Below, in pieces: positions 5,487 to 33,593 of a stretch of DNA of 64,000 bases. The stretch is taken from the NCBI GenBank assembly GCA_037305845.1, contig CP147778.1, forward strand, positions 1,120,001 through 1,184,000, given 5' to 3'. A program made the translations under genes and the position numbers. This DNA is from Candidatus Freyarchaeum deiterrae. Its GTDB lineage: Archaea > Asgardarchaeota > Jordiarchaeia > Jordiarchaeales > Jordiarchaeaceae. The stretch's first letter is position 1; every line of letters starts with the position of its first letter. Below the pieces are notes generated by a model. The model was not told the DNA's origin, searched no databases, and worked only from the letters and a program-made list of their open reading frames with translations.

Positions 5487-5834
5487 ATGGCTAAACAGGC
5501 AAAAAAGAAAAACAAGGAAGAAACTGTACCAGAAGAGAATATGGTTTTTATTGGAAAAAAACCGACAAAGTAGATTCACGTTAGTGTTCTACGTCGAATG
5601 AGTTACGTTCTGGCTTGCGTTATTCAGTTTAATCAGGGTGCGAAAGAAGTAAGAGTTGTGGCGCGTGGAAGGGCGATTTCCAAGGCTGTTGATGTTGCGG
5701 AGATCGTACGCCAGCGTTTCTTGCCTGAGGGTGTAAAATTGGGTAAGATTACTATGGGCACCGAGATTATGGGAGCTAGTGCTGACGAAAAACGTAATGT
5801 TTCCACTATTGATATTCAACTCCTAAAAGCTTAA
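5487..5834 (+). CDS. albA: DNA/RNA-binding protein Alba, intron-split: join(5487..5568,5599..5834), 105 aa
   Basis: GGAGGT then ATG 5487. Exon 1 ends ...[10 protein letters not shown]; exon 2 gives MSYVLA...[16 protein letters not shown]...NVSTIDI. Splicing restores GKKPTMSYVLA. Confidence 0.92.
5569..5598 (+). other. 30-nt BHB intron in alba
   Basis: CGAC-AA^A-GTAGA...TCTAC-GTCG-AA^T; contains in-frame TAG. Confidence 0.88.
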
Positions 5835-22178: not shown

Positions 22179-22328
22179 TCAATCAGAGCCTATCACAATC
22201 TCTTTGTTCACGATCTCCTTACCCTCTTCATCGAGGATAATGAGATGGGCGGAACATGAGAGTCAGCAGTCATAGGATCGCATAACCATTTCCAGTAGGT
22301 TAAGGACCTTTGGGTCTATTTCGGGCAT
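22179..22328 (-). CDS. vhuU: Selenocysteine-containing hydrogenase C-terminal peptide VhuU (49 aa; TGA at 22263-22265 = Sec)
   Basis: GGAGGA then MPEIDPKVLNLLEMVMRSYDC-U-LSCSAHLIILDEEGKEIVNKEIVIGSD*. Supplies the Ni-binding motif missing from the upstream large subunit. Confidence 0.88.
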
Positions 22329-22357: not shown

Positions 22358-23671
22358 TTAAGTTTTTATCATGGGTTCGGGTAACTTCAATTTTTCAAGA
22401 ATCTTATCCTCAAATATTTGCTTAGCCGTCACTAGGATTGATTTTTCCACTGTGGCTATGTTATGATTGGTGGCAACAATGAGGTTTGCTTTGGTGCATA
22501 TTCCGTTGTCATCTGACCAGTAGTGATGTATAAGTGTTCCACGAGGAGCTTCTAATATGCCTGCACCATTACCCTGTTTAGGCTCCACATCTGCAAGCTT
22601 AACATCGGTACTGACTATATCGGGGTCTTCAAGTAGAATCTTTGCTTTCTCTACAGCTTCAACCAGTTCAACTATCCTAGCCCAGTTATAAGCTAGGGTA
22701 GCATTGCATGGTCTGCCAACAGTATCCCTATATTCCTTGAATGCCTCCTGAGCCAGAGGAGTCTCCATTTTTTCGACAACATTTAGGCGTGGCAAAGGCC
22801 CTGCACGCCAAATTCCGTCTGGATAACCCGCCGGCTTATAGAATATGTGTGTCGCATAGGAGTAAGGTGCTACGTGTTCAGCTATGTATTCCAAATAATC
22901 TTTCTTCGGGAAATCTGCAACAATTTTACCTTCGGGACTCATAACCCTGACCGTTGCCTTCCCAAAGATGGTGTGCACGCCTTCATTGGCAATACCTACG
23001 TGGTATGAATCAAAAACTCCTAGCTTTGTTATAACATCTAGGTAGTCTGTAACAACCTTCTTAGCAAGGTCTACAGTAAAGTTGGTGAGTTCCAGTGCCT
23101 TGTCAATCCTTTTTAACTGTTCATCGCGTTCCTCCTCTGTCAGAGATTTAGACTGACCTCCAGGAACAGAAGTGACTGGATGTATAGCTCTTCCACCTAT
23201 AAGGAAGCAAAGTTCCTGTCCAATTCTCATCAATTCCAGTGCTTTTTTACCCACATCAGGTAGATTTTTAATTACTGTAATCACGTTACGGTATTTCGGC
23301 TCAGCGAGAGGACCTAACAGAAAGTCTGGCGCAGCTAAGGCATAAAAGTGTAAAGCGTGACTGGAAATATATTTTGCCTGTAAGAGGAGTTCTCTAAGCT
23401 TTAACGCGGGCAGGGGTGGAGTAACATCCCAAGCAGTCTCAACAGCGCTTACCGCTGCTAGGTGGTGAGCCTCGGGGCAGATACCGCAAATCCTTGGCGC
23501 TATTCGAATCACCCGGTCGAGATTACGGCCTTCTAGGAATTTTTCAAAGAAACGTGTGACTACTACACCGAAATGGGCGTCTTCTACTGTGTTATTTTTG
23601 CCTAGCTTTATTACGATTTTTCCGTGTCCCTCAAGTCTGGTTGCTGGTTCAATAACAATTTCTTTACTCAT
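22358..23671 (-). CDS. mvhA: F420-non-reducing [NiFe(Se)] hydrogenase large subunit (group 3c, split form, VhuA/MvhA)
   Basis: TRLEGHG, RICGIC, EAPRGTLIH; lacks the C-terminal DPCxxC. Confidence 0.92.
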   Translation of the reverse strand: MSKEIVIEPATRLEGHGKIVIKLGKNNTVEDAHFGVVVTRFFEKFLEGRNLDRVIRIAPRICGICPEAHHLAAVSAVETAWDVTPPLPALKLRELLLQAKYISSHALHFYALAAPDFLLGPLAEPKYRNVITVIKNLPDVGKKALELMRIGQELCFLIGGRAIHPVTSVPGGQSKSLTEEERDEQLKRIDKALELTNFTVDLAKKVVTDYLDVITKLGVFDSYHVGIANEGVHTIFGKATVRVMSPEGKIVADFPKKDYLEYIAEHVAPYSYATHIFYKPAGYPDGIWRAGPLPRLNVVEKMETPLAQEAFKEYRDTVGRPCNATLAYNWARIVELVEAVEKAKILLEDPDIVSTDVKLADVEPKQGNGAGILEAPRGTLIHHYWSDDNGICTKANLIVATNHNIATVEKSILVTAKQIFEDKILEKLKLPEPMIKT

Positions 23672-23674
23672 ATT

Positions 23675-24586
23675 TTATTTCGCCTTCCTTACGGTTTTTG
23701 ATACTATGCCCGATGGCAGGAAGTAGGTATAAAAGGTTCCGGCAACATCACCGACTCTTTTTACAAGTTCCTCTGGGCTTATTGCCTCATAATCTACTAT
23801 GGAGCCCAGTGCGCTAATCATCTTGGCTCCTTGGTCTATTACATTCGGTCCTGGACCGTAGCATCCCGTACAGGGCGATCCCGCCCTTGTACACAAGGCA
23901 CCGCAGCCTTCACGTGTCGCGGGCCCCATGCAAACGTATCCCTGTTCCAATAAGCACTTCTTTGGATCCGGTATCCCTTCATAGTCTCTCTTTAACTGTT
24001 TAATAGTTATTACTTGGGATTTTTCTCTTGGACACTCGTCACATAGAGTACGAGTTGGTGGTGGCGGTAGCTCGCCTTTCAACAGACCCACTAATGCGTC
24101 TGCAATGTTCTGTGAAGTTACCGGACAACCGGGTAGGAAAACTTCAAAATTCACTATTTTTTTGTTAGGCACAATAAAGTCTAACATCTTTGGAATATCT
24201 TCATCAGGAATAGAAGGTTCTTCAAGACTTTCTGCTTCCATAAATTTACGTTTGAAAGCTTCATCCATAGTAGAAAGATTAAGCAATCCGTAGATTCCAC
24301 CATAGGTGGAACAGCTGCCCAATGAAATCAGAGTTTTAACCTTCGCCCTCAAAGTCTTTAAGATGTGTACATCTTCCTCTGTCCTGCAGACACCTTCAAC
24401 AATTCCGACATCGATTGAGCCGTCCTTGTAACTCTCTAAATCCTTGTACTTGAAGTCGGTCACTACATGCCAGAAGACAATGTCCAACTCCGGCAGAATG
24501 GGTAGCAGGCCTTCGTAATTATCTAAAAACGATTGGTAACAACCCCAACAACTGGCCAACGAAACCATAGCTACTTTAACAGGCAT
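23675..24586 (-). CDS. mvhG: Hydrogenase small subunit MvhG
   Basis: SCWGC, GSCSTYGG, PGCP, CLLEQG..CMGP, CTGCYGP. Confidence 0.92.
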   Translation of the reverse strand: MPVKVAMVSLASCWGCYQSFLDNYEGLLPILPELDIVFWHVVTDFKYKDLESYKDGSIDVGIVEGVCRTEEDVHILKTLRAKVKTLISLGSCSTYGGIYGLLNLSTMDEAFKRKFMEAESLEEPSIPDEDIPKMLDFIVPNKKIVNFEVFLPGCPVTSQNIADALVGLLKGELPPPPTRTLCDECPREKSQVITIKQLKRDYEGIPDPKKCLLEQGYVCMGPATREGCGALCTRAGSPCTGCYGPGPNVIDQGAKMISALGSIVDYEAISPEELVKRVGDVAGTFYTYFLPSGIVSKTVRKAK

Positions 24587-24605: not shown

Positions 24606-25065
24606 TTACTCCTTATCTTTTCTGAGCGGACTAGGTCCCAACTCCTTCAGTTTTTTCACAAAATCGTTCATAACTTCAACTAAAACATTACCTTCACTGG
24701 CTGAAATCCACTCCAACCTTAATCTCTCGGGTTCAATACCGAGCTGTTCAATTAACTTTTCGAGAAGTCTAATTCTCTCCTCAGCCCTGTAGTTTCCAGT
24801 AACATAGTGACAGTCACCGTGATGACACCCCGCTATAAGCACACCATCAGCACCCAATTCAAAAGCTTTCAAAACAAACTGAGGATCGACACGACTACTA
24901 CACATAACCCGAATAAACCTAGCATTTGAGGGATACTGCATCCTACTAGTACCCGCCATATCAGCGCCGGCATATGAACACCAATTCTGCGCCATGTAGA
25001 CAAATCTACGAAGCTTTGCAGAAGATGCCGACAATTCTTGGTTTAAATTCTCCGTCATTACCCAT
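24606..25065 (-). CDS. mvhD: MvhD [2Fe-2S] subunit, intron-split: join(complement 25016..25065, 24606..24984), 142 aa
   Basis: AGGTGA then ATG 25065: [16 protein letters not shown]|[12 protein letters not shown]...RVMCSSR...GCHHGDCHY. Intron removal restores the CNWC motif. Confidence 0.92.
24985..25015 (-). other. 31-nt BHB intron in mvhD
   Basis: CTGC-AA^A-GCT..GTAGA-TTTG-TCTAC..GGC-GCAG-AA^T; shifts frame and contains in-frame TAG. Confidence 0.9.
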
Positions 25066-25155
25066 TGCCTTTCACCTTACTTTAGTAATGTTTTTTTGAA
25101 GTTGTAGCAGATATTTTGTTGTGTTCACATTTTTTATTATCATTAGGGGGGAAGG

Positions 25156-25225
25156 TTTCCCCACGCGTGTTTTTAATAGGGTTTTTTTCGTGGTTAACAG
25201 TTATTTTTGATATTTAATGCTTTCG
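25156..25225 (-). promoter_or_regulatory. Promoter/leader of mvhD operon, duplicated upstream of hdrA
   Basis: 34-nt identity (25186-25219 = 28892-28925); BRE/TATA-like CGAAA..ATTAAATA on the minus strand. Confidence 0.7.
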
Positions 25226-25440
25226 ACAGCTTTATCCGCCAATTTTTAAAAAATAACAAACCGGAATTATTTCTACATAGAACGGAACCAGCTATATTTC
25301 TCGGATTAGTACGCCCTTTTTTTAAAAAATTAGGACTTATTACATGGAGTTGGCGCCTGTTTTGTTCTAGTCAATTATAATCACATTTTTGATTTAAAAT
25401 AATTCATGAAAACAGATGCAGAGATCCATTTGAAGTTATA

Positions 25441-25560
25441 TCCGAGTTCAAGAGCATTAAAAGGACAGACATCTCAACAACTTCCACAGAAACTAACTAA
25501 TTCCCAACATCAATCAGAGTTCTAATACGGGAAAGCTATGGAATGTGGGGACATATACGA
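25441..25560 (-). pseudogene. Degenerate 4Fe-4S ferredoxin/NuoI-like fragment
   Basis: Minus strand reads FCGSC*DVCPFNALELG, with stops and frameshifts upstream. Confidence 0.45.
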
Positions 25561-25695
25561 AGCGAATAAGAGTATGGTTCTATTTTTAAAACCTCTGATA
25601 ATCCTTAAGATTATTAGATGTGGCGAGGTCTTGTTTATAGGCAAGTCTAAAAATAGCGTAACTTGTTTCGTTTGAGAATTTGCCGGTGACCCTTT

Positions 25696-26724
25696 GTGAC
25701 AACTTTGAAAGTGCTGTTTAAAACTGTACAGGGGCTTGAAGAACCCACTTCGCAGGAGATTCTTGAGAAACTGAGCGCTATTAATTTGATCTTCTCCCCC
25801 TATGGCCCACAAGGATGGATTAAGTGTGAAATAGAGGATCGCATATTTAGGGATGTAGGAAGACTAAGGTCAATTATTGAGGCTTATGTGATTTTACGGG
25901 AGGAAGATTACGACGAGGGGTTCTCAATTGATAATTTTGCGGATGCGGTGGTAACTGAGATTCCTGTTTATGCTCCTAACGCCCGAAAAATTTCAGTTTC
26001 AGCCTACTCAAGTCACAGAAAACCAAGCCAAAAGGAGATACAAGGAACTTTTGCGAGGAGAATCGCCAAGGAACTTAACGCTGAATGCAATCTTAGGAAT
26101 TATGATACCGCTTTAAGAATAACCTTACTCAGGAGAATAGCGCTTGCAACCATAAACCTGGAAATACAGCCAGGAAACATGCCAAAGAAACTTGAAACCC
26201 ACCCAACACCAGTACTTCCCCCCATAGCGTATTGTATGGTCAGGTTAGCGTCCCCACAGAAGGGTGAACACTTGCTCGACCCGATGTGTGGTTGTGGAAC
26301 AATACCATGCATGGCGGCATTAGAGTGGGAAAACCTTAGAGTTACAGGGTCGGACATTTCCAGTGAATATATATCCTGCGCCAAGAGAAACGCTGAAACC
26401 TTAGGGGTAGCGGATAGAGTAAAATTTATGGTTAGTGACGTAGCAGAACTCGCAGAAAAAGGAGTTGAAGCGGATATAATCTCAGTTAACCCACCGTATG
26501 GAATAGCCATACCAACACAAAACGAGACGGAAAAACTGTACGACTCGATATTCAACACAGCTGATAAAATTCTACCAAAACAGGGTAGAATCATCATAAT
26601 AACACCCTACCCTCAACAAGTAGGAGAAGCGGCAAACAAAAAGAAGTTCCAGAGTATCAACACCTACAAAATCCACGAAGGAGAATTACCCAGAACAATC
26701 CAAATCATGAAAAAGTTACAATAA
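25696..26724 (+). CDS. THUMP-like SAM-dependent RNA methyltransferase (Trm14/UPF0020 family)
   Basis: LDPMCGCGTI, GSDIS, NPPYG. Confidence 0.85.
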   Translation: MTTLKVLFKTVQGLEEPTSQEILEKLSAINLIFSPYGPQGWIKCEIEDRIFRDVGRLRSIIEAYVILREEDYDEGFSIDNFADAVVTEIPVYAPNARKISVSAYSSHRKPSQKEIQGTFARRIAKELNAECNLRNYDTALRITLLRRIALATINLEIQPGNMPKKLETHPTPVLPPIAYCMVRLASPQKGEHLLDPMCGCGTIPCMAALEWENLRVTGSDISSEYISCAKRNAETLGVADRVKFMVSDVAELAEKGVEADIISVNPPYGIAIPTQNETEKLYDSIFNTADKILPKQGRIIIITPYPQQVGEAANKKKFQSINTYKIHEGELPRTIQIMKKLQ

Positions 26725-26842
26725 AAAATAGAGGTACATACCTCAAACTCTTTTCGAATTCTTCCAGCTAAGGTCACCGTATTTACTGGAATATTCCTTA
26801 GAAAATTATTAAAAAAGAGAAAAGAAAAAATTTGATTCGATT

Positions 26843-28801
26843 CTACTTTTGCAGGGCGGCTTCTATTTCAGCCATCACTTGTTTGAACTTGAAGTGTTGC
26901 TCGTCTATAGCTCCACTTGGGCAAGCAGCGGCACAAGCTCCACAGCCTTTGCACAGTATGCTGTTTATATTTGATTTATTATCTACAGTCATGCCGATTG
27001 CTCCGTATGGACATACATCTTGGCATACCTTGCATCCAGAGCAGAGTTCCTCGTCGACGACGCTAAAGTAGGGCTCGATCTCCACTTCACCCATACCCAT
27101 GAGTGCCATGGCGGCTGCAGCTGCACCCTTGCCTTGAGCTACTGCGTCAGGGATATCTTTTGGTCCTTGAGCCATGCCGCATACGAAGACACCGTCTGTA
27201 AGGGTGTCAACTGGGCGTAGCTTGGGGTGTGCTTCCATCAAGAATCCGTCTGCACTCTTGGAGAGTCGGAATAAGTGCTGTATTTCGGTAGTTTCCTTTC
27301 TGGGAATCACCGCTGATGCTAGGACAACCAGGTCCACTTCTAGTTCCATGAGTTGGCCGAGTAGCGTATCTTCCGCGCGGACTAATAGTTTTTCTGTTCC
27401 GGGGACTTGTCGGACTTCTGCCACTCTGCCTCGAACAAAGTTTACGCCGTATTCTCTTCCCGCAATCTCGTAGAATTCATCGTAACCTTTTCCAAAGGTC
27501 CGCATATCCATGTAAAATATGAAAACCTCAGCGTCAGGATATTTTTCCTTAATCTGCCTCGCGTGCTTTACGCTATAAGTGCAGCAGACTCTGGAACAGT
27601 ACTGGAATATCCTCTGGTCACGCGAACCTACACACTGAATGAACGCTATTCGCTTCGGCTTCTCATGGGTTGATGGAACAATAACCTTGCCACCCGTTGG
27701 GCCGAACGAACTAAGCAGCCTCTCCAGCTCCATGGAGGTGATTACGTTTGGTAAACGGCCATAACCATACTGGGGCAAGTCAAACGGAGTATATACATCA
27801 TAGCCAGTAGCTATTATAACAGTGCCCACGTTCAACTCTATCTCTTTCTCTTGCTGGTTGAAGTCAAGAGCCTCAGGCTCACAGGCCTTCACACACAGCA
27901 TACACTCTATACACTTATTTCTATCAATGGTGTAAAGGTTAGGAACAGCCTGCGGGAAAGGAATGTACGCCGCTCTTCGCGCACCCATACCTAATTCAAA
28001 TTCGTTGGGAACATACACTGGGCAGACCTCAACACATTTTCCACAACCAGTGCATTTTCCAGCTATCACGTATCTCGGATGTTCAACTATCTTCACTTTG
28101 AAGTTGCCTACATATCCTTCAACGCTTTTGAGTTCGCTATAGGTATGGATTTCAATATTCGGGTTACGAGACGCTTCCACCATTTTCGGAGTCAAAATAC
28201 ATGCGCTGCAGTCCATAGTTGGAAACGTCTTGTCAAGCTGCGCCATTCTCCCTCCAATAGTGGGAGACATCTCAATAAGGTAAACCTTGAATCCCGCCTT
28301 AGCAATGTCCAGCGCAGCTGAAATTCCAGCGATACCGCCTCCAACTATTAGGCACTCTGGTGTAACCTTTACTTTCTGAACCTCCAGTGGTTCCAATGCC
28401 GTAGCTTTAGCAACAGCAATCCTAATCAGATCCTTTGCCTTTTCCAACGCTTCCTCCGGTTGCCTCATGTGAACCCAGGTATCATGCTCCCTAATATTCG
28501 CCTGCTCAAAAAGAAACTGGTTCAACCCGGCCTCCACACACACTCTCCGGAAGGTCGGCTCATGAAGCCTCGGACTACAAGCTGCAACCACTACCCTGTT
28601 AAGATTCAGCTTCTGAATGTCCTCCTTAATCATCCCCTGTCCAGGATCAGAACACATAAAACGGTAATCTTTGGCCACCACCACATTGGGCAGGGTTTGT
28701 GCATACTCAGTCAAAGCCGTAGGACTCACTACACCAGCTATGTTCGTACCACAATGACACACATAAACTCCTATCCGTACTTCTTCTTCTTTTTCACCCA
28801 T
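26843..28801 (-). CDS. hdrA: Heterodisulfide reductase subunit A
   Basis: CHCGTNI, GGGIAG, DKTFPTMDCSAC, QCVGSR, CSRVCC, ferredoxin motifs. Confidence 0.96.
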   Translation of the reverse strand: MGEKEEEVRIGVYVCHCGTNIAGVVSPTALTEYAQTLPNVVVAKDYRFMCSDPGQGMIKEDIQKLNLNRVVVAACSPRLHEPTFRRVCVEAGLNQFLFEQANIREHDTWVHMRQPEEALEKAKDLIRIAVAKATALEPLEVQKVKVTPECLIVGGGIAGISAALDIAKAGFKVYLIEMSPTIGGRMAQLDKTFPTMDCSACILTPKMVEASRNPNIEIHTYSELKSVEGYVGNFKVKIVEHPRYVIAGKCTGCGKCVEVCPVYVPNEFELGMGARRAAYIPFPQAVPNLYTIDRNKCIECMLCVKACEPEALDFNQQEKEIELNVGTVIIATGYDVYTPFDLPQYGYGRLPNVITSMELERLLSSFGPTGGKVIVPSTHEKPKRIAFIQCVGSRDQRIFQYCSRVCCTYSVKHARQIKEKYPDAEVFIFYMDMRTFGKGYDEFYEIAGREYGVNFVRGRVAEVRQVPGTEKLLVRAEDTLLGQLMELEVDLVVLASAVIPRKETTEIQHLFRLSKSADGFLMEAHPKLRPVDTLTDGVFVCGMAQGPKDIPDAVAQGKGAAAAAMALMGMGEVEIEPYFSVVDEELCSGCKVCQDVCPYGAIGMTVDNKSNINSILCKGCGACAAACPSGAIDEQHFKFKQVMAEIEAALQK

Positions 28802-28863
28802 TCGGATTTCCTCCGAGATTTAATTTTTAAAGAGCTATATTAAATTAAATTATCGTTAAGAAT

Positions 28864-28931
28864 TTTCCCACGCGTATTTTTAGGAGGGTTGTTTCGTGGT
28901 TAACAGTTATTTTTGATATTTAATGTTTTCG
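28864..28931 (-). promoter_or_regulatory. Promoter/leader of hdrA, copy of the mvhD upstream element
   Basis: Near-identical to 25156-25225. Confidence 0.7.
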
Positions 28932-29082
28932 TTATCCCACATTTAATAAAACACAAAACTCAGTAGAGCTTATACGCAAATTAGAATCAAGCCTTTATTT
29001 AAAGCGACAAAATTATATCTCACTAAATTAATTTAATAAATACTTGAATTATAATAGAACTTTTAAAGGGGTTTATTTCTAA

Positions 29083-29694
29083 ATGGCGACTCTAAGGATA
29101 ATCTGCGATAACTGCGGGGCCAAGTTGCAATATTCCGAAGGTGAAACAGTTGTAACCTGCCCTTATTGTAATTGTGCCGTGGCACTAATAAAACCAGAAG
29201 ACGCCGAAGAACACTTCAAACGGGGGAACGACCATTATGAAAAGGGATTGCTTGGTAAGGCGATACGGGAATACAGAGAGGCGCTAAGAATAAACCCAGA
29301 CCATGCCAAAGCCCACAACAACCTGGGGACCGCTCTTGATGATAAGGGATTGGTTGATGAGGCGGTACGGGAATATGGAGAGGCGCTAAGAATAAACCCA
29401 GAATATGCCATAGCCCACTATAACTTGGGAAACGCCCTTTATGATAAGGGGTTGCTTGACGAGGCGATCCGAGAATATAGAGAAGCAATAAGAATAAAAC
29501 CGGACATCGTCTATGCACATAACAACTTGGGAAATGCTCTTGATGATAAGGGATTAGTTGATGAGGCGATACAAGAATATAGAGAAGCAATAAGAATAAA
29601 ACCGGACTTCACCGAAGCTCAACTCAACCTGAGTACGACCCTTAAAGCTAAGGGGCGGCCTGAGAGGCGATCAAAAAGTACAAAGAGGCGTTAA
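29083..29694 (+). CDS. Zn-ribbon plus TPR-repeat protein (last repeat frameshifted)
   Basis: CDNCG/CPYC; 34-aa repeats AHNNLG.AL.DKG..DEAI.EY.EA.RI.P. Confidence 0.85.
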   Translation: MATLRIICDNCGAKLQYSEGETVVTCPYCNCAVALIKPEDAEEHFKRGNDHYEKGLLGKAIREYREALRINPDHAKAHNNLGTALDDKGLVDEAVREYGEALRINPEYAIAHYNLGNALYDKGLLDEAIREYREAIRIKPDIVYAHNNLGNALDDKGLVDEAIQEYREAIRIKPDFTEAQLNLSTTLKAKGRPERRSKSTKRR

Positions 29695-29843
29695 GAATAA
29701 AACCAGACCCTGCCGAAGATTCCTGAGTATGCATGTATTCAGACTGCGATGAAATCTTTTTGTACGTTAAGCGGCAGAATTATATCTCCTCAAATTAATT
29801 TAGTTAATACTTGATTTATGATGGAACTTAGGGGTATTTTTAA

Positions 29844-30692
29844 ATGGCGACTCTAAGGATAACCTGCGACAACTGCGGAGCCCCACTGCAATACTCCAAA
29901 GGAGAAACAGTCCAAACCTGCCCTTATTGTAAGTGCACAGTAACACTAATAATAAAAACAGCAGCAGCAGCAGAAGAAGAGGAAGAAGCCGAAGAAATAT
30001 CAGAAGAGGAAATGGAAGAAGCCGAAGACCATTACAAACAGGGGGTTGCCCTTTATTACAAAAGGTTGAATGATGAAGCGATTGAAGAATTCGAAGAAGC
30101 GCTAAAAATAAAACCAAACTACGCCGAAGCCCACAACGACCTAGGAGTTGCCCTCTTAGATAAGGGGCTGATTGGTGAAGCAATCAAGAAGTACAGAAAG
30201 GCGCTAAAAATAAAACCAAACCTCGCCACAGCCCACTATAATTTGGGGAATGCCCTTAGAGATAAGGGATTGCTGGATGAAGCGATCCAGGAATACAGAG
30301 AAGCAATAAGAATAAAACCAGACGACACCGACACCCACCATAATTTGGGGAATGTCCTTAAAGCAAAGAGATTATTTGATGAGGCGATACGAGAATACAG
30401 AAAAGCAATAAGAATAAAACCAGACGACCCCGACACCCACAACAACATGGGGAACGCCCTCTACGATAAAGGGCTGCTTGACGAAGCAATCAAGGAATAC
30501 AGAAAAGCGCTAAAAATAAAACCGAGCTACGTTGAAGCCCATTATAACCTGGGGAACGCCTACTATGATAAGGGGCTGCTTGACGAATCGACACGAGAAT
30601 ACAGAAAAGCGCTAAAAATAAACCCAGACCTTATTGAAGGCATTCCTAAGGATCGCCGTAAGAAGATCCTTAAGGGTAAATGGTCATTTTAG
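29844..30692 (+). CDS. Zn-ribbon plus TPR-repeat protein (tandem paralog)
   Basis: Same N-terminus MATLRI.CDNCGA; acidic linker; six TPRs. Confidence 0.88.
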   Translation: MATLRITCDNCGAPLQYSKGETVQTCPYCKCTVTLIIKTAAAAEEEEEAEEISEEEMEEAEDHYKQGVALYYKRLNDEAIEEFEEALKIKPNYAEAHNDLGVALLDKGLIGEAIKKYRKALKIKPNLATAHYNLGNALRDKGLLDEAIQEYREAIRIKPDDTDTHHNLGNVLKAKRLFDEAIREYRKAIRIKPDDPDTHNNMGNALYDKGLLDEAIKEYRKALKIKPSYVEAHYNLGNAYYDKGLLDESTREYRKALKINPDLIEGIPKDRRKKILKGKWSF

Positions 30693-31029
30693 TTTAGAGG
30701 GTCTTTTTGGGAACAAAAGAGGAGGGTATAAAAGAAATATAACTCAGATGAACAGCGATCCAGACTTTGCTGATGCATACTCAGCTTATAAATGTCCAGG
30801 TAGTTTTTTACTATGTGAAGAAACTATTTTTCCCAAAATCAAGACCCTTTTTAACAGAACTAAATTGTGTGGAGTTTTTAAGAGATTTTACAGCACTTAC
30901 GGTTGCCACCAGAAAATGTTGTCTTTAGAAGAACTAAAGGCAGCGCACTAGACTGGTGTACACGCCCATAACAAATCTTTTCCACCTATCCTCCGAATAG
31001 GAATACGCCTACACAACAGGGATGAAGCA

Positions 31030-31488
31030 ATGTCCAAAAAAGCTGAGCTGGTAAACGTTCAGAAAAGGATTGACTCACCGAATACGGGCTCCGCCCTATT
31101 CGAGATATGTAAGTGGTGCACCTGGTATCAGAAATTGGAAGTTAAAACTCTTTTCGGAACTCACGTCAAGAAGCCCTACAAAAATTGTCCTAATTGCGGT
31201 TGCCCAACCACAATAATTCCTGATGAAATAGTTTGCGCGTGCGGGGTTTGTAGAAGGCTGCTCGTAGAAAAATTCGTAATATCCCTCAACAGCGTCAAAA
31301 AAGTCTCATCAGTAGAGTATGATTACGAGTGCTACAACTGCGGAAACACAACAAACATTACCTTTCTTCATGTATGCGGCGATGGAGAACTCGGAGAATG
31401 CGACGCCTTATCAAAAAACGAAGGAGAAAAACCCATGGGATTCGAGTGCATAAGATGCCGCAAGTATGTCCAAAATACCACAATCTAG
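31030..31488 (+). CDS. Cys-rich multi-zinc-ribbon hypothetical protein
   Basis: CKWC, CPNC, CGVC, CYNC, CIRC. Confidence 0.6.
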   Translation: MSKKAELVNVQKRIDSPNTGSALFEICKWCTWYQKLEVKTLFGTHVKKPYKNCPNCGCPTTIIPDEIVCACGVCRRLLVEKFVISLNSVKKVSSVEYDYECYNCGNTTNITFLHVCGDGELGECDALSKNEGEKPMGFECIRCRKYVQNTTI

Positions 31489-32074
31489 TCTTAAAGAAAC
31501 TCATACTTTTAAAAAAATCTATTTCCAAAGTTAATAATCTTTTTACGAGTAACCATCACACCACTAAAAAAAGAGCCTAATGAACTAATAATATCCGCAA
31601 AAATTCACCTCAAGCTTCACTCCAAGCTCTTAACCAAGTCATCAAAAGCCACAGAATATTCGGAACCAGAAAAACATGCTTCTTTTTAAACATGACCTGA
31701 GATTACTCTCCCTAAAAGATAATAAACAACAAACCGGAAAATGAATAAACAAAGCCCAACACAAAAAACACAAGAAACAATAGTTAGAACACGCCCACCC
31801 TACACAAAAAAAGAACGTGAATAAAGTCACACACCCCATTTTAAAACCCGAAAAAGTAGAAACAAAACAAACTCTAAACCCTCAAAAAACACGAAAACAA
31901 AACGACCAAACACACACAAAAACAACAAACCACCAGAAACTATAGCGGACAAAACAAGCAAATAATTTATAAATTAAAAACCCTACCGTAAGACGGCGCA
32001 AAACTCATACTAACGCGCCAACAAAAAACAACCACCAATTTAAATTTATTATGACCAAAAGAAGGTAACCAACC

Positions 32075-32707
32075 ATGGTCGAAGAACAAAAAATAGTAAG
32101 AAAAACAGACCCAAAATTCATAGAAGAAATAATCGAATACGGATCAAAATACTTCACAAAAGAAGAAATGGAAAGACTAAGAGCATGTATCCAGTGCGGC
32201 ACATGCGTTTCCGGTTGCCCTTCAGGCCGTAGAACTGCTTGGCGTATTAAGAAAATCTTTAGACGGGCTCAGCTGGGGTTGAAGGAAGATGCTCTGAAAG
32301 ACGAAGGGCTCTGGGACTGTACCACGTGTTTCACGTGCCAAGAAATCAGAGCTTAGGTTTATTATTACTTACTCTGACTTGAAAGATGTCCCAGAAAGGT
32401 GCCTACTACTGATGTTGTTCGTGTGATTCGTAATATTGCTTTTAGGAATGGTATTGCTAATCCGAAGCATTTGGCTACTTGTGGTTATCTTTTCAGGTTT
32501 GGTCATGGTGTTCCGATTAATGATGATACTAAGGCGGTTAGGAAGAAGATTGGTTTGGATGAACTTCCTGCTACGGTTCATAAGTATCCTGAGGGTTTGA
32601 AAGAGGTTAATACGATAGTTGAGGAAACTGGGTTTAAGAAAGTGGTTGACGACGCTCAGAAAGAGGCTCAACAGAAGGAGGCTCAGAAGAAAGATGAAAA
32701 GAAGTAG
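32075..32707 (+). CDS. hdrC: Heterodisulfide reductase subunit C, intron-split: join(32075..32344,32384..32707), 197 aa
   Basis: CIQCGTCVSGCP, then WDCTTCFTCQE|RCPRKVPTTD after intron removal; GHGVP; followed by hdrB. Confidence 0.93.
32345..32383 (+). other. 39-nt BHB intron in hdrC
   Basis: CAAG-AA^A-TCAGAG...CTCTGA-CTTG-AA^A; contains in-frame TAG and TGA. Confidence 0.9.
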
Positions 32708-33593
32708 GTATGCTTACTTTTTGGGGTGTTTGACTCCGAATAGGTATCCTGGTATTGAGGCTGCGACTAAGGATGTGCTTAATACTTTTGATATTGATGT
32801 GTTGGAGATGAATGGTGCTTCTTGTTGTCCGGCGCCGGGGGTCTTTGGATCGTTTGATCTTTTTACTTGGTTGACTATTGCGGCTAGGAATCTTACTATT
32901 GCTGAGAGTGTGGGTGCAAATATTATGGTTACCTGTAATGGGTGTTTCGGGACTCTCCAGGAGGCTAATGAGATGCTTAAGGAGAATAAGGAGTTGAAGT
33001 CGCAGGTTAACGAGGTTTTGGCTAAGATTGGTAGGGAGTTTAAGGGTACTATTGAGGTTAAACATGTGGTTGATATTCTTAGGAACGAGGTTGGTCTTGA
33101 GAGGATTAGTGATATGACTATTCAGCCTTTGACCGGTGTTAAGGTTGGGGTGCATTATGGTTGCCACTTTTTGAAGCCGAGTTCTGTTAGGAATCAGGGG
33201 AATCCTGAGACTTCGACGATTATGGAGGAAGTGATTGGTGCTGTGGACGCGGTGCCTGTGGATTATAAGGATAAGTTGACGTGTTGTGGTGCTGGCGGTG
33301 GTGTGAGGGCTGCGAAGCTGGATGTGGCTTTGGATTTCACGAAGGAGAAGCTTGACAATATGTTGGCGGCGGGTGCTGATTGTGTCTGTACGCCCTGTGC
33401 TTTTTGTCATTTCCAGTTTGATGCGGGTCAGCAGGAAATCAATTCGAAGAGTAAGAATGGGCATTATAATCTTCCAGTGGTTTATATTACTCAGCTGGTT
33501 GGGTTGGGTTTAGGTATTTCTCCTGTTAGAATGGGGCTGTACGATAATAAGACGCAGGTTCAAACGCTGCTTGACAAGATTCGTGCAGCTTAA
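32694..33593 (+). CDS. hdrB: Heterodisulfide reductase subunit B
   Basis: YFLGC, CCPAPG, CNGC, HYGCH, CCGAGGG, CAFCHFQFD. ATG 32694 overlaps the hdrC end. Confidence 0.95.
   Translation: MKRSRYAYFLGCLTPNRYPGIEAATKDVLNTFDIDVLEMNGASCCPAPGVFGSFDLFTWLTIAARNLTIAESVGANIMVTCNGCFGTLQEANEMLKENKELKSQVNEVLAKIGREFKGTIEVKHVVDILRNEVGLERISDMTIQPLTGVKVGVHYGCHFLKPSSVRNQGNPETSTIMEEVIGAVDAVPVDYKDKLTCCGAGGGVRAAKLDVALDFTKEKLDNMLAAGADCVCTPCAFCHFQFDAGQQEINSKSKNGHYNLPVVYITQLVGLGLGISPVRMGLYDNKTQVQTLLDKIRAA

Follow-up and report, generated by a model that had tools for sequence, protein, structure and literature searches.

We examined a stretch of 64,000 nucleotides from the genome of Candidatus Freyarchaeum deiterrae (genome G000, a single contig of 3,576,204 bases), referred to here as the window (G000:1120001-1184000), in which the genes alba, mvhD and hdrC are each interrupted by a short insert with a bulge-helix-bulge (BHB) fold. 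These three introns are best explained as members of a genome-wide set of separately gained mRNA introns that are most likely removed routinely, not as a dedicated switch on the bifurcating Hdr-Mvh complex, a reading to which we give a probability of roughly 0.78. In the mechanism that we propose, the pre-mRNA would form a helix of 4 bp with an A-rich bulge of 3 nt on either side; EndA, the tRNA splicing endonuclease of two subunits, would cleave each bulge behind its second base, and RtcB would ligate the exons, so that the frame is restored. The genome encodes two EndA paralogues (PF01974) and one rtcB (PF01139), and EndA and RtcB are predicted to carry out the splicing. The introns would have arrived singly, at different ages, and been kept where the fold allows efficient removal. 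Their resemblance would then stem from the requirements of the enzyme together with selection for a stop codon inside the intron, and owing to that stop any unspliced message would presumably be a clean null. The introns and their exons lie in the window as follows.

5487..5834, plus strand: alba gene (exon 1 5487-5568, exon 2 5599-5834; 105 residues when spliced)
5569..5598, plus strand: alba intron, 30-nt BHB, phase 1, UAG at codon 2, helix CGAC/GTCG; outside the span 24985-32383 to which the preliminary description was assigned
24606..24984, minus strand: mvhD exon 2, PF02662 FlpD
24985..25015, minus strand: mvhD intron, 31-nt BHB inside the CxWC motif, phase 2, UAG at codon 4, helix CTGC/GCAG
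25016..25065, minus strand: mvhD exon 1, 16 codons, matching the N-terminus of intron-less relatives
32075..32344, plus strand: hdrC exon 1, TIGR03290 positions 2-56
32310..32317, plus strand: 5' arm of the hdrC exon-exon helix, 8 bp, which closes the hdrC BHB
32345..32383, plus strand: hdrC intron, 39-nt BHB inside the second CxxCxxCxxxCP motif, phase 0, UAG at codon 4, helix CAAG/CTTG
32384..32707, plus strand: hdrC exon 2, TIGR03290 positions 57-144; its 3' end overlaps the hdrB start
32388..32395, plus strand: 3' arm of the hdrC exon-exon helix, pairing with 32310..32317

Each of the three has a 4-bp Watson-Crick central helix between two 3-nt bulges, one on either strand, together with an inner hairpin; when the local pre-mRNA is folded, the BHB comes out as the structure of lowest energy. 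All three have a relaxed outer helix (HBh' type), with an 8-bp distal exon helix in hdrC, and owing to this relaxation a strict BHB scan requiring an adjacent outer helix missed the whole trio. At the same energy cut-off a decoy geometry returned 4 candidates against 31 for the real BHB geometry. When each bulge is cut behind its second base and the insert is taken out, the motifs read IFC/NWCSY in mvhD, CQE/RCP in hdrC and KKPT/MSYV in alba, as in intron-less relatives, and full-length products of 142, 197 and 105 residues respectively are recovered; the preliminary description was thus right to place the introns in conserved motifs, two of them in cysteine motifs of the first genes of separate operons. 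The TIGR03290 HdrC profile match is broken exactly at the intron junction, and the true mvhD start is missed by gene callers, which take the exon-2 frame. It is highly probable that the three inserts are real, and probably spliced, BHB mRNA introns. Reading them as assembly errors or broken genes, to which the frame breaks alone would lead, has next to no probability: assemblies made independently contain the same inserts, relatives have them together with compensatory changes, cross-strain data that refute an error, and the affected genes are single-copy and essential.

Comparison with relatives shows how the introns have been maintained. All six same-genus genomes have the alba intron, as do three of the five sister-family genomes, in which the inner stem has a different sequence. 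Besides recurring in three assemblies of this strain made independently, the mvhD intron is shared by four related strains, where its changes preserve the stem. One row of alignment A2, that of G002, carried incorrect coordinates and was disregarded. That of hdrC was found in G000, G003, G004, a JGI contig and G009, whose central helix has covaried (CAAG/CTTG vs AGCG/CGCT); all four same-genus hdrC genes with the intron preserve the 8-bp exon-exon helix, the bases concerned being at synonymous positions, and every intron-less one has it broken. Where relatives have an intron at the same site, its BHB is retained although the inner sequence has been exchanged. Ages differ, from hypD and selD (order-wide) and alba (order-wide with losses) through porA and ferredoxin (genus-wide) to hdrC, patchy even within the genus tree, and mvhD, confined to one subclade. 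A natural alba variant carries CAG where the in-frame UAG stands, and among alba variants the proteins P0157, P0177 and P0178 have the 30-nt intron in frame without a stop, giving a 118-residue read-through if unspliced. At only 16-17 nt, the sister-family hypD intron (L251-L255) approaches the smallest size possible for a BHB whose inner stem has 3 bp.

Exact excision of two of the introns can be seen in public contigs. Alignment of L198 (SRR28530379) with L199 (SRR28530383) extends over 6,774 bases with 0 mismatches, and its single gap is the 31-nt mvhD intron. Likewise, L204 and L205 (SRR28530378 and SRR28530379) match L206 (SRR28530383) over 13.2 and 8.0 kb with 0 mismatches and a single gap, the 30-nt alba intron, and a contig of a second species (L203, from SRR28530378; four mismatches to G001) is without the same 30-nt alba intron. 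Because this involves two introns and two species in the same runs, the intron-less contigs probably derive from RNA reads in which the spliced form is dominant. An exact search of JGI metagenomes for the mvhD junction gave no match.

The genome-wide set was established by a motif-free census, in which a spliced dynamic-programming aligner was run against proteins read from about 2 Mb of DNA sampled from five relatives' genomes. Among 1,585 aligned regions there were 19 BHB-type frame breaks in 17 genes, about 1%, which is a lower bound, since a reference of only about 2 Mb from five genomes misses introns that it shares. Adding a de novo scan and further leads, each rechecked on sequence, brings the total to at least 28 mRNA introns in 25 genes. 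Hosts include FBPase, NAD synthase, rtcB, gatE, tyrS, kae1, ahcY (three introns), a RuBisCO-like protein (two), porA, hypD, selD, ferredoxin, cbf5 and rps26e, some names resting on motif recognition without a profile search. Introns placed on the genome are these.

Genome 1055908: BHB intron in FBPase
Genome 1483415-1483446 (L217), minus strand: BHB intron in cbf5, 32 nt, at the catalytic Asp codon
Genome 1589354: BHB intron in porA
Genome 1619887: BHB intron in NAD synthase
Genome 2434689: BHB intron in an uncharacterised gene
Genome 2458220: BHB intron in selD
Genome 2494680: BHB intron in a flavin oxidoreductase

The aligner was used in place of two other approaches, a dicodon-only de novo scan that had no power and a diagonal-pair junction finder that drowned in noise. 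Several census candidates were dropped: those at genome 1903607 and window 6387, where the reference was read in the wrong frame or through non-coding DNA; 3221995, a true gene end; 2345672 and 1547244, unconvincing as protein genes; and matches to the CRISPR array and to repeat proteins. In-frame inserts without a stop showed no BHB excess in the census, such introns being hard to detect.

Across this set a few rules emerge. The first base is A in 25 of 28 introns for each bulge, and A-rich bulges are the only general junction feature, found in tRNA introns too. An in-frame stop lies inside 18 of 19 frameshifting introns, compared with 15 of 38 in the other frames (P=6e-5), and it may be any of the three codons (TAA 10, TGA 9, TAG 8), the rule not being specific to UAG. 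In tRNA introns stops occur in 41% per frame, and the in-frame bias is specific to mRNA introns. In 18 of 20 cases the insertion site is better conserved than the median of its host gene (P=4e-4, a figure subject to some detection bias). The host is the first gene of its operon in 23 of 25 cases against a background of 71%, a hint only given the incomplete set of open reading frames. All 25 intron-bearing protein genes, like the tRNA genes, fall within genome 0.99-2.58 Mb, 45% of the chromosome round the GC-skew maximum at 1.68 Mb; this same 45% holds only 54% of the aligned conserved regions.

Several observations weigh against regarding the trio as ordinary, routinely spliced members of this set. 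The contigs from SRR28530378 and SRR28530379 also cover intergenic DNA, and the alternatives are precise intron loss in DNA or skipping of the hairpin by reverse transcriptase; it is unlikely that DNA identical in all else would have lost the introns precisely and at the same time, and the repeats at the excised junctions measure only 2-3 nt, which is short for reverse-transcriptase skipping. No excised form of hdrC was identified in the public contigs searched. The alba and mvhD introns are the only pair among 325 with a common 5-bp stem, two of six core Hdr-Mvh subunits carry an intron (P about 0.001-0.002 for a pre-chosen set), and 6 of the 25 hosts (mvhD, hdrC, hypD, selD, ferredoxin and porA) serve the H2/ferredoxin route, selD being counted because the hydrogenase needs selenocysteine in its VhuU peptide. 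The last three of these bear on other explanations, which are considered in turn.

The common stem raises the idea of a common mobile origin, put forward in the preliminary description. In the version considered here, the trio would derive from one element, and reverse splicing or homing would have copied the young mvhD intron from that of alba, which is older. It had been noted that all three introns follow C-N-N-S-AA^A...S-N-N-G-AA^W, finish with GAA and carry an in-frame UAG by the fourth codon (hdrC 4, mvhD 4, alba 2), and that the alba and mvhD introns both contain GTAGATT...TCTAC; all of this is borne out by the sequences. As a grammar, however, the pattern is overfitted. In a comparison of 28 mRNA and 36 tRNA introns the full pattern occurs in the trio alone (3 of 28 mRNA introns, 0 of 36 tRNA introns), GAA ends 11 of the 28, and the seven junction bases that the trio shares represent a level met by 5.2% of all triples of the genome's mRNA introns, so that the case for anything special beyond chance is weak. 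Copying from alba would fit the location of that gene, 20 kb from mvhD, and the greater age of its intron, and under a structure-preserving null the chance that some pair in a pre-chosen trio shares a 5-bp stem is 0.8%; among 26 introns, though, 79% of runs of the same null contain one such pair or more. The stem is at non-equivalent positions, abutting the bulge in alba and apical in mvhD, and it includes the in-frame TAG needed by both introns. It is found reversed in a tRNA-Ser intron, is missing from the hdrC intron and is replaced in the sister-family alba introns. When 26 mRNA introns (325 pairs) and 35 tRNA introns were compared pairwise, the only high-similarity pairs were tRNA-tRNA, and alba-mvhD scored 7, rank 35 of 325. 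Of the two genome-wide signs proposed beforehand, site bias was found and shared sequence was not, with no intron family emerging. A genome search with PF00078 gave no reverse transcriptase (trans-acting enzymes from other families lay outside that search), the introns of 30-39 nt have no open reading frame and are too short for a homing endonuclease, and a recent study reports no general copying route for Asgard tRNA introns (bioRxiv 10.64898/2026.10.13.758758). A donor link between the alba and mvhD introns is unsupported, and a common mobile origin is very improbable.

The presence of introns in two subunits of one complex raises a second possibility, that the mvhD and hdrC introns form a coordinated post-transcriptional switch for the bifurcating complex. 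Both stop translation early and break a cysteine motif, each in the first gene of its own operon, and unspliced hdrC could also lower hdrB, because the hdrB start overlaps the hdrC end. The other core subunits lie in the window as follows.

22358..23671, minus strand: mvhA/vhuA, C-terminally split large subunit; no intron found
23675..24586, minus strand: mvhG/vhuG; no intron found
26843..28801, minus strand: hdrA, the bifurcating subunit, in its own transcription unit; no intron found
32694..33593, plus strand: hdrB; no intron found

Against such a switch, the six-gene set was picked afterwards, from 300 possible host-gene pairs, and hdrA has a transcription unit of its own. Among 18 hdr/mvh-family genes examined only two carry an intron, with none in hdrA, hdrB, mvhA, mvhG or the 12 paralogous hdrA, mvhD and hdrC-like loci. 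Mapping presence and absence across 11 genomes or contigs, as the preliminary description had proposed, shows that the two introns are not conserved together. All four combinations occur: both in one (G000), mvhD only in one (JGI 3300031877, one contig), hdrC only in three (G003, G004, G009) and neither in six (G001, G005-G008, G010), the single case of both comparing with 0.7 expected under independence. The two introns share no element and differ in age, the intron-less form wins assembly in two runs, and of the 28 introns 5 have a cysteine adjoining the junction, where 3 are expected. Site bias and early stops are not properties of Hdr-Mvh, as both are genome-wide rules. Coordinated control of Hdr-Mvh, as originally suggested, is thus not upheld, and we regard such a switch as very improbable; that two subunits of one complex are affected is probably a coincidence noticed after the fact, in a set that leans towards conserved core genes. 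Splicing of the trio is probably routine, and we infer that it is unregulated.

It also should be considered that EndA/RtcB capacity could limit core mRNAs (energy, translation, rtcB) as a global checkpoint, with growth state tuning all of them together and none of the introns serving a single complex. Introns in rtcB, cbf5, kae1, gatE, tyrS, selD and rps26e, the ligase gene itself being interrupted, would be in keeping with this, as would the selected in-frame stops and the retention of the hypD and selD introns across the order. However, purifying selection explains intron retention and stops equally well, many introns have been lost without pattern, and a global checkpoint is unlikely. The narrower wording, in which splicing capacity acts as a growth- or redox-dependent checkpoint on core mRNAs including the six H2-to-ferredoxin genes, is likewise doubtful; if true, it would mean that an Asgard archaeon controls energy metabolism by non-spliceosomal mRNA splicing.

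A well-known example of non-spliceosomal mRNA splicing is that of HAC1/XBP1 by Ire1 and RtcB, in which a protein nuclease and a tRNA ligase remove an intron and restore the frame. That system is signal-regulated and has a dedicated nuclease, unlike the routine splicing proposed for the introns described here. Closer to our case is the BHB intron of the cbf5 pre-mRNA known in Desulfurococcales and Sulfolobales (Watanabe 2002; Yokobori 2009, PMC2738675), likewise a short coding-region intron in a conserved motif, cut after the second bulge base. The cbf5 intron found here is at the same codon as the crenarchaeal one, by shared ancestry or repeated gain at one site. Unlike that system, which concerns one gene, at least 25 genes are involved here, spanning energy metabolism, translation and chromatin, some with several introns, and EndA cleavage is predicted. 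In Haloferax volcanii the HVO_1309 intron is an EndA-processed mRNA intron whose spliced form is the major product (PMC7714728; PMC10485636), but it lies in a 5' untranslated region and breaks no reading frame. The tRNA genes of Freyarchaeia and Atabeyarchaeia are multi-intron (PMC11291895; bioRxiv 10.64898/2026.10.13.758758), with introns in 92-95% of tRNA genes (PMC11291895). The tRNA introns of Freyarchaeum lie in the same genome as the mRNA introns and resemble them in size class, A-rich bulges and repeated independent gains without a visible donor. Both papers cover tRNA genes only, and a search of them by term turned up no mention of introns in mRNAs or protein genes (PMC11291895; bioRxiv 10.64898/2026.10.13.758758). 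In the literature searched there was no report of such introns in Asgard protein genes, the published mRNA cases being cbf5 and the HVO_1309 5' untranslated region only. New here are the tests of grammar and gate, the in-frame stop rule and the exact-excision contigs for alba and mvhD.

The wider meaning is that tRNA-type splicing would be needed by at least 25 protein genes, some of them essential or energy-conserving, of a prokaryote closely related to eukaryotes. Public data appear to hold spliced forms, which makes intron gain, intron loss and stop-codon quality control testable in a prokaryote. Unless splice ratios turn out to be regulated, the idea of an Hdr-Mvh gate contributes little. 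There is also a practical consequence, as gene callers truncate or split the proteins (MvhD loses a conserved cysteine and HdrC is cut in two) and metabolic reconstructions of Jordarchaeia/Freyarchaeia are therefore distorted.

Some minor features of the window and genome were recorded. An unannotated 49-residue VhuU-type peptide (22179-22328, minus strand) follows the truncated mvhA, with an in-frame UGA (selenocysteine) at a nickel-ligand position, and a GC-rich hairpin downstream of it may be a SECIS (selenocysteine insertion sequence) element. A 70-bp upstream element is duplicated with 90% identity before mvhD and hdrA (window 25156-25225 and 28863-28931), these being the only two copies in the genome. 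Between mvhD and hdrA lies a THUMP-type methyltransferase gene (25696-26724, plus strand); the two genes are adjacent in G001 and G003-G005, and wherever a strain carrying the mvhD intron could be checked, the inserted gene was there too. Two tandem zinc-ribbon/TPR genes occupy 29083-30692 (plus strand), the first ending early, apparently through a frameshift near 29660. Elsewhere, a CRISPR-like array with a 37-nt repeat lies at genome about 28-32.5 kb.

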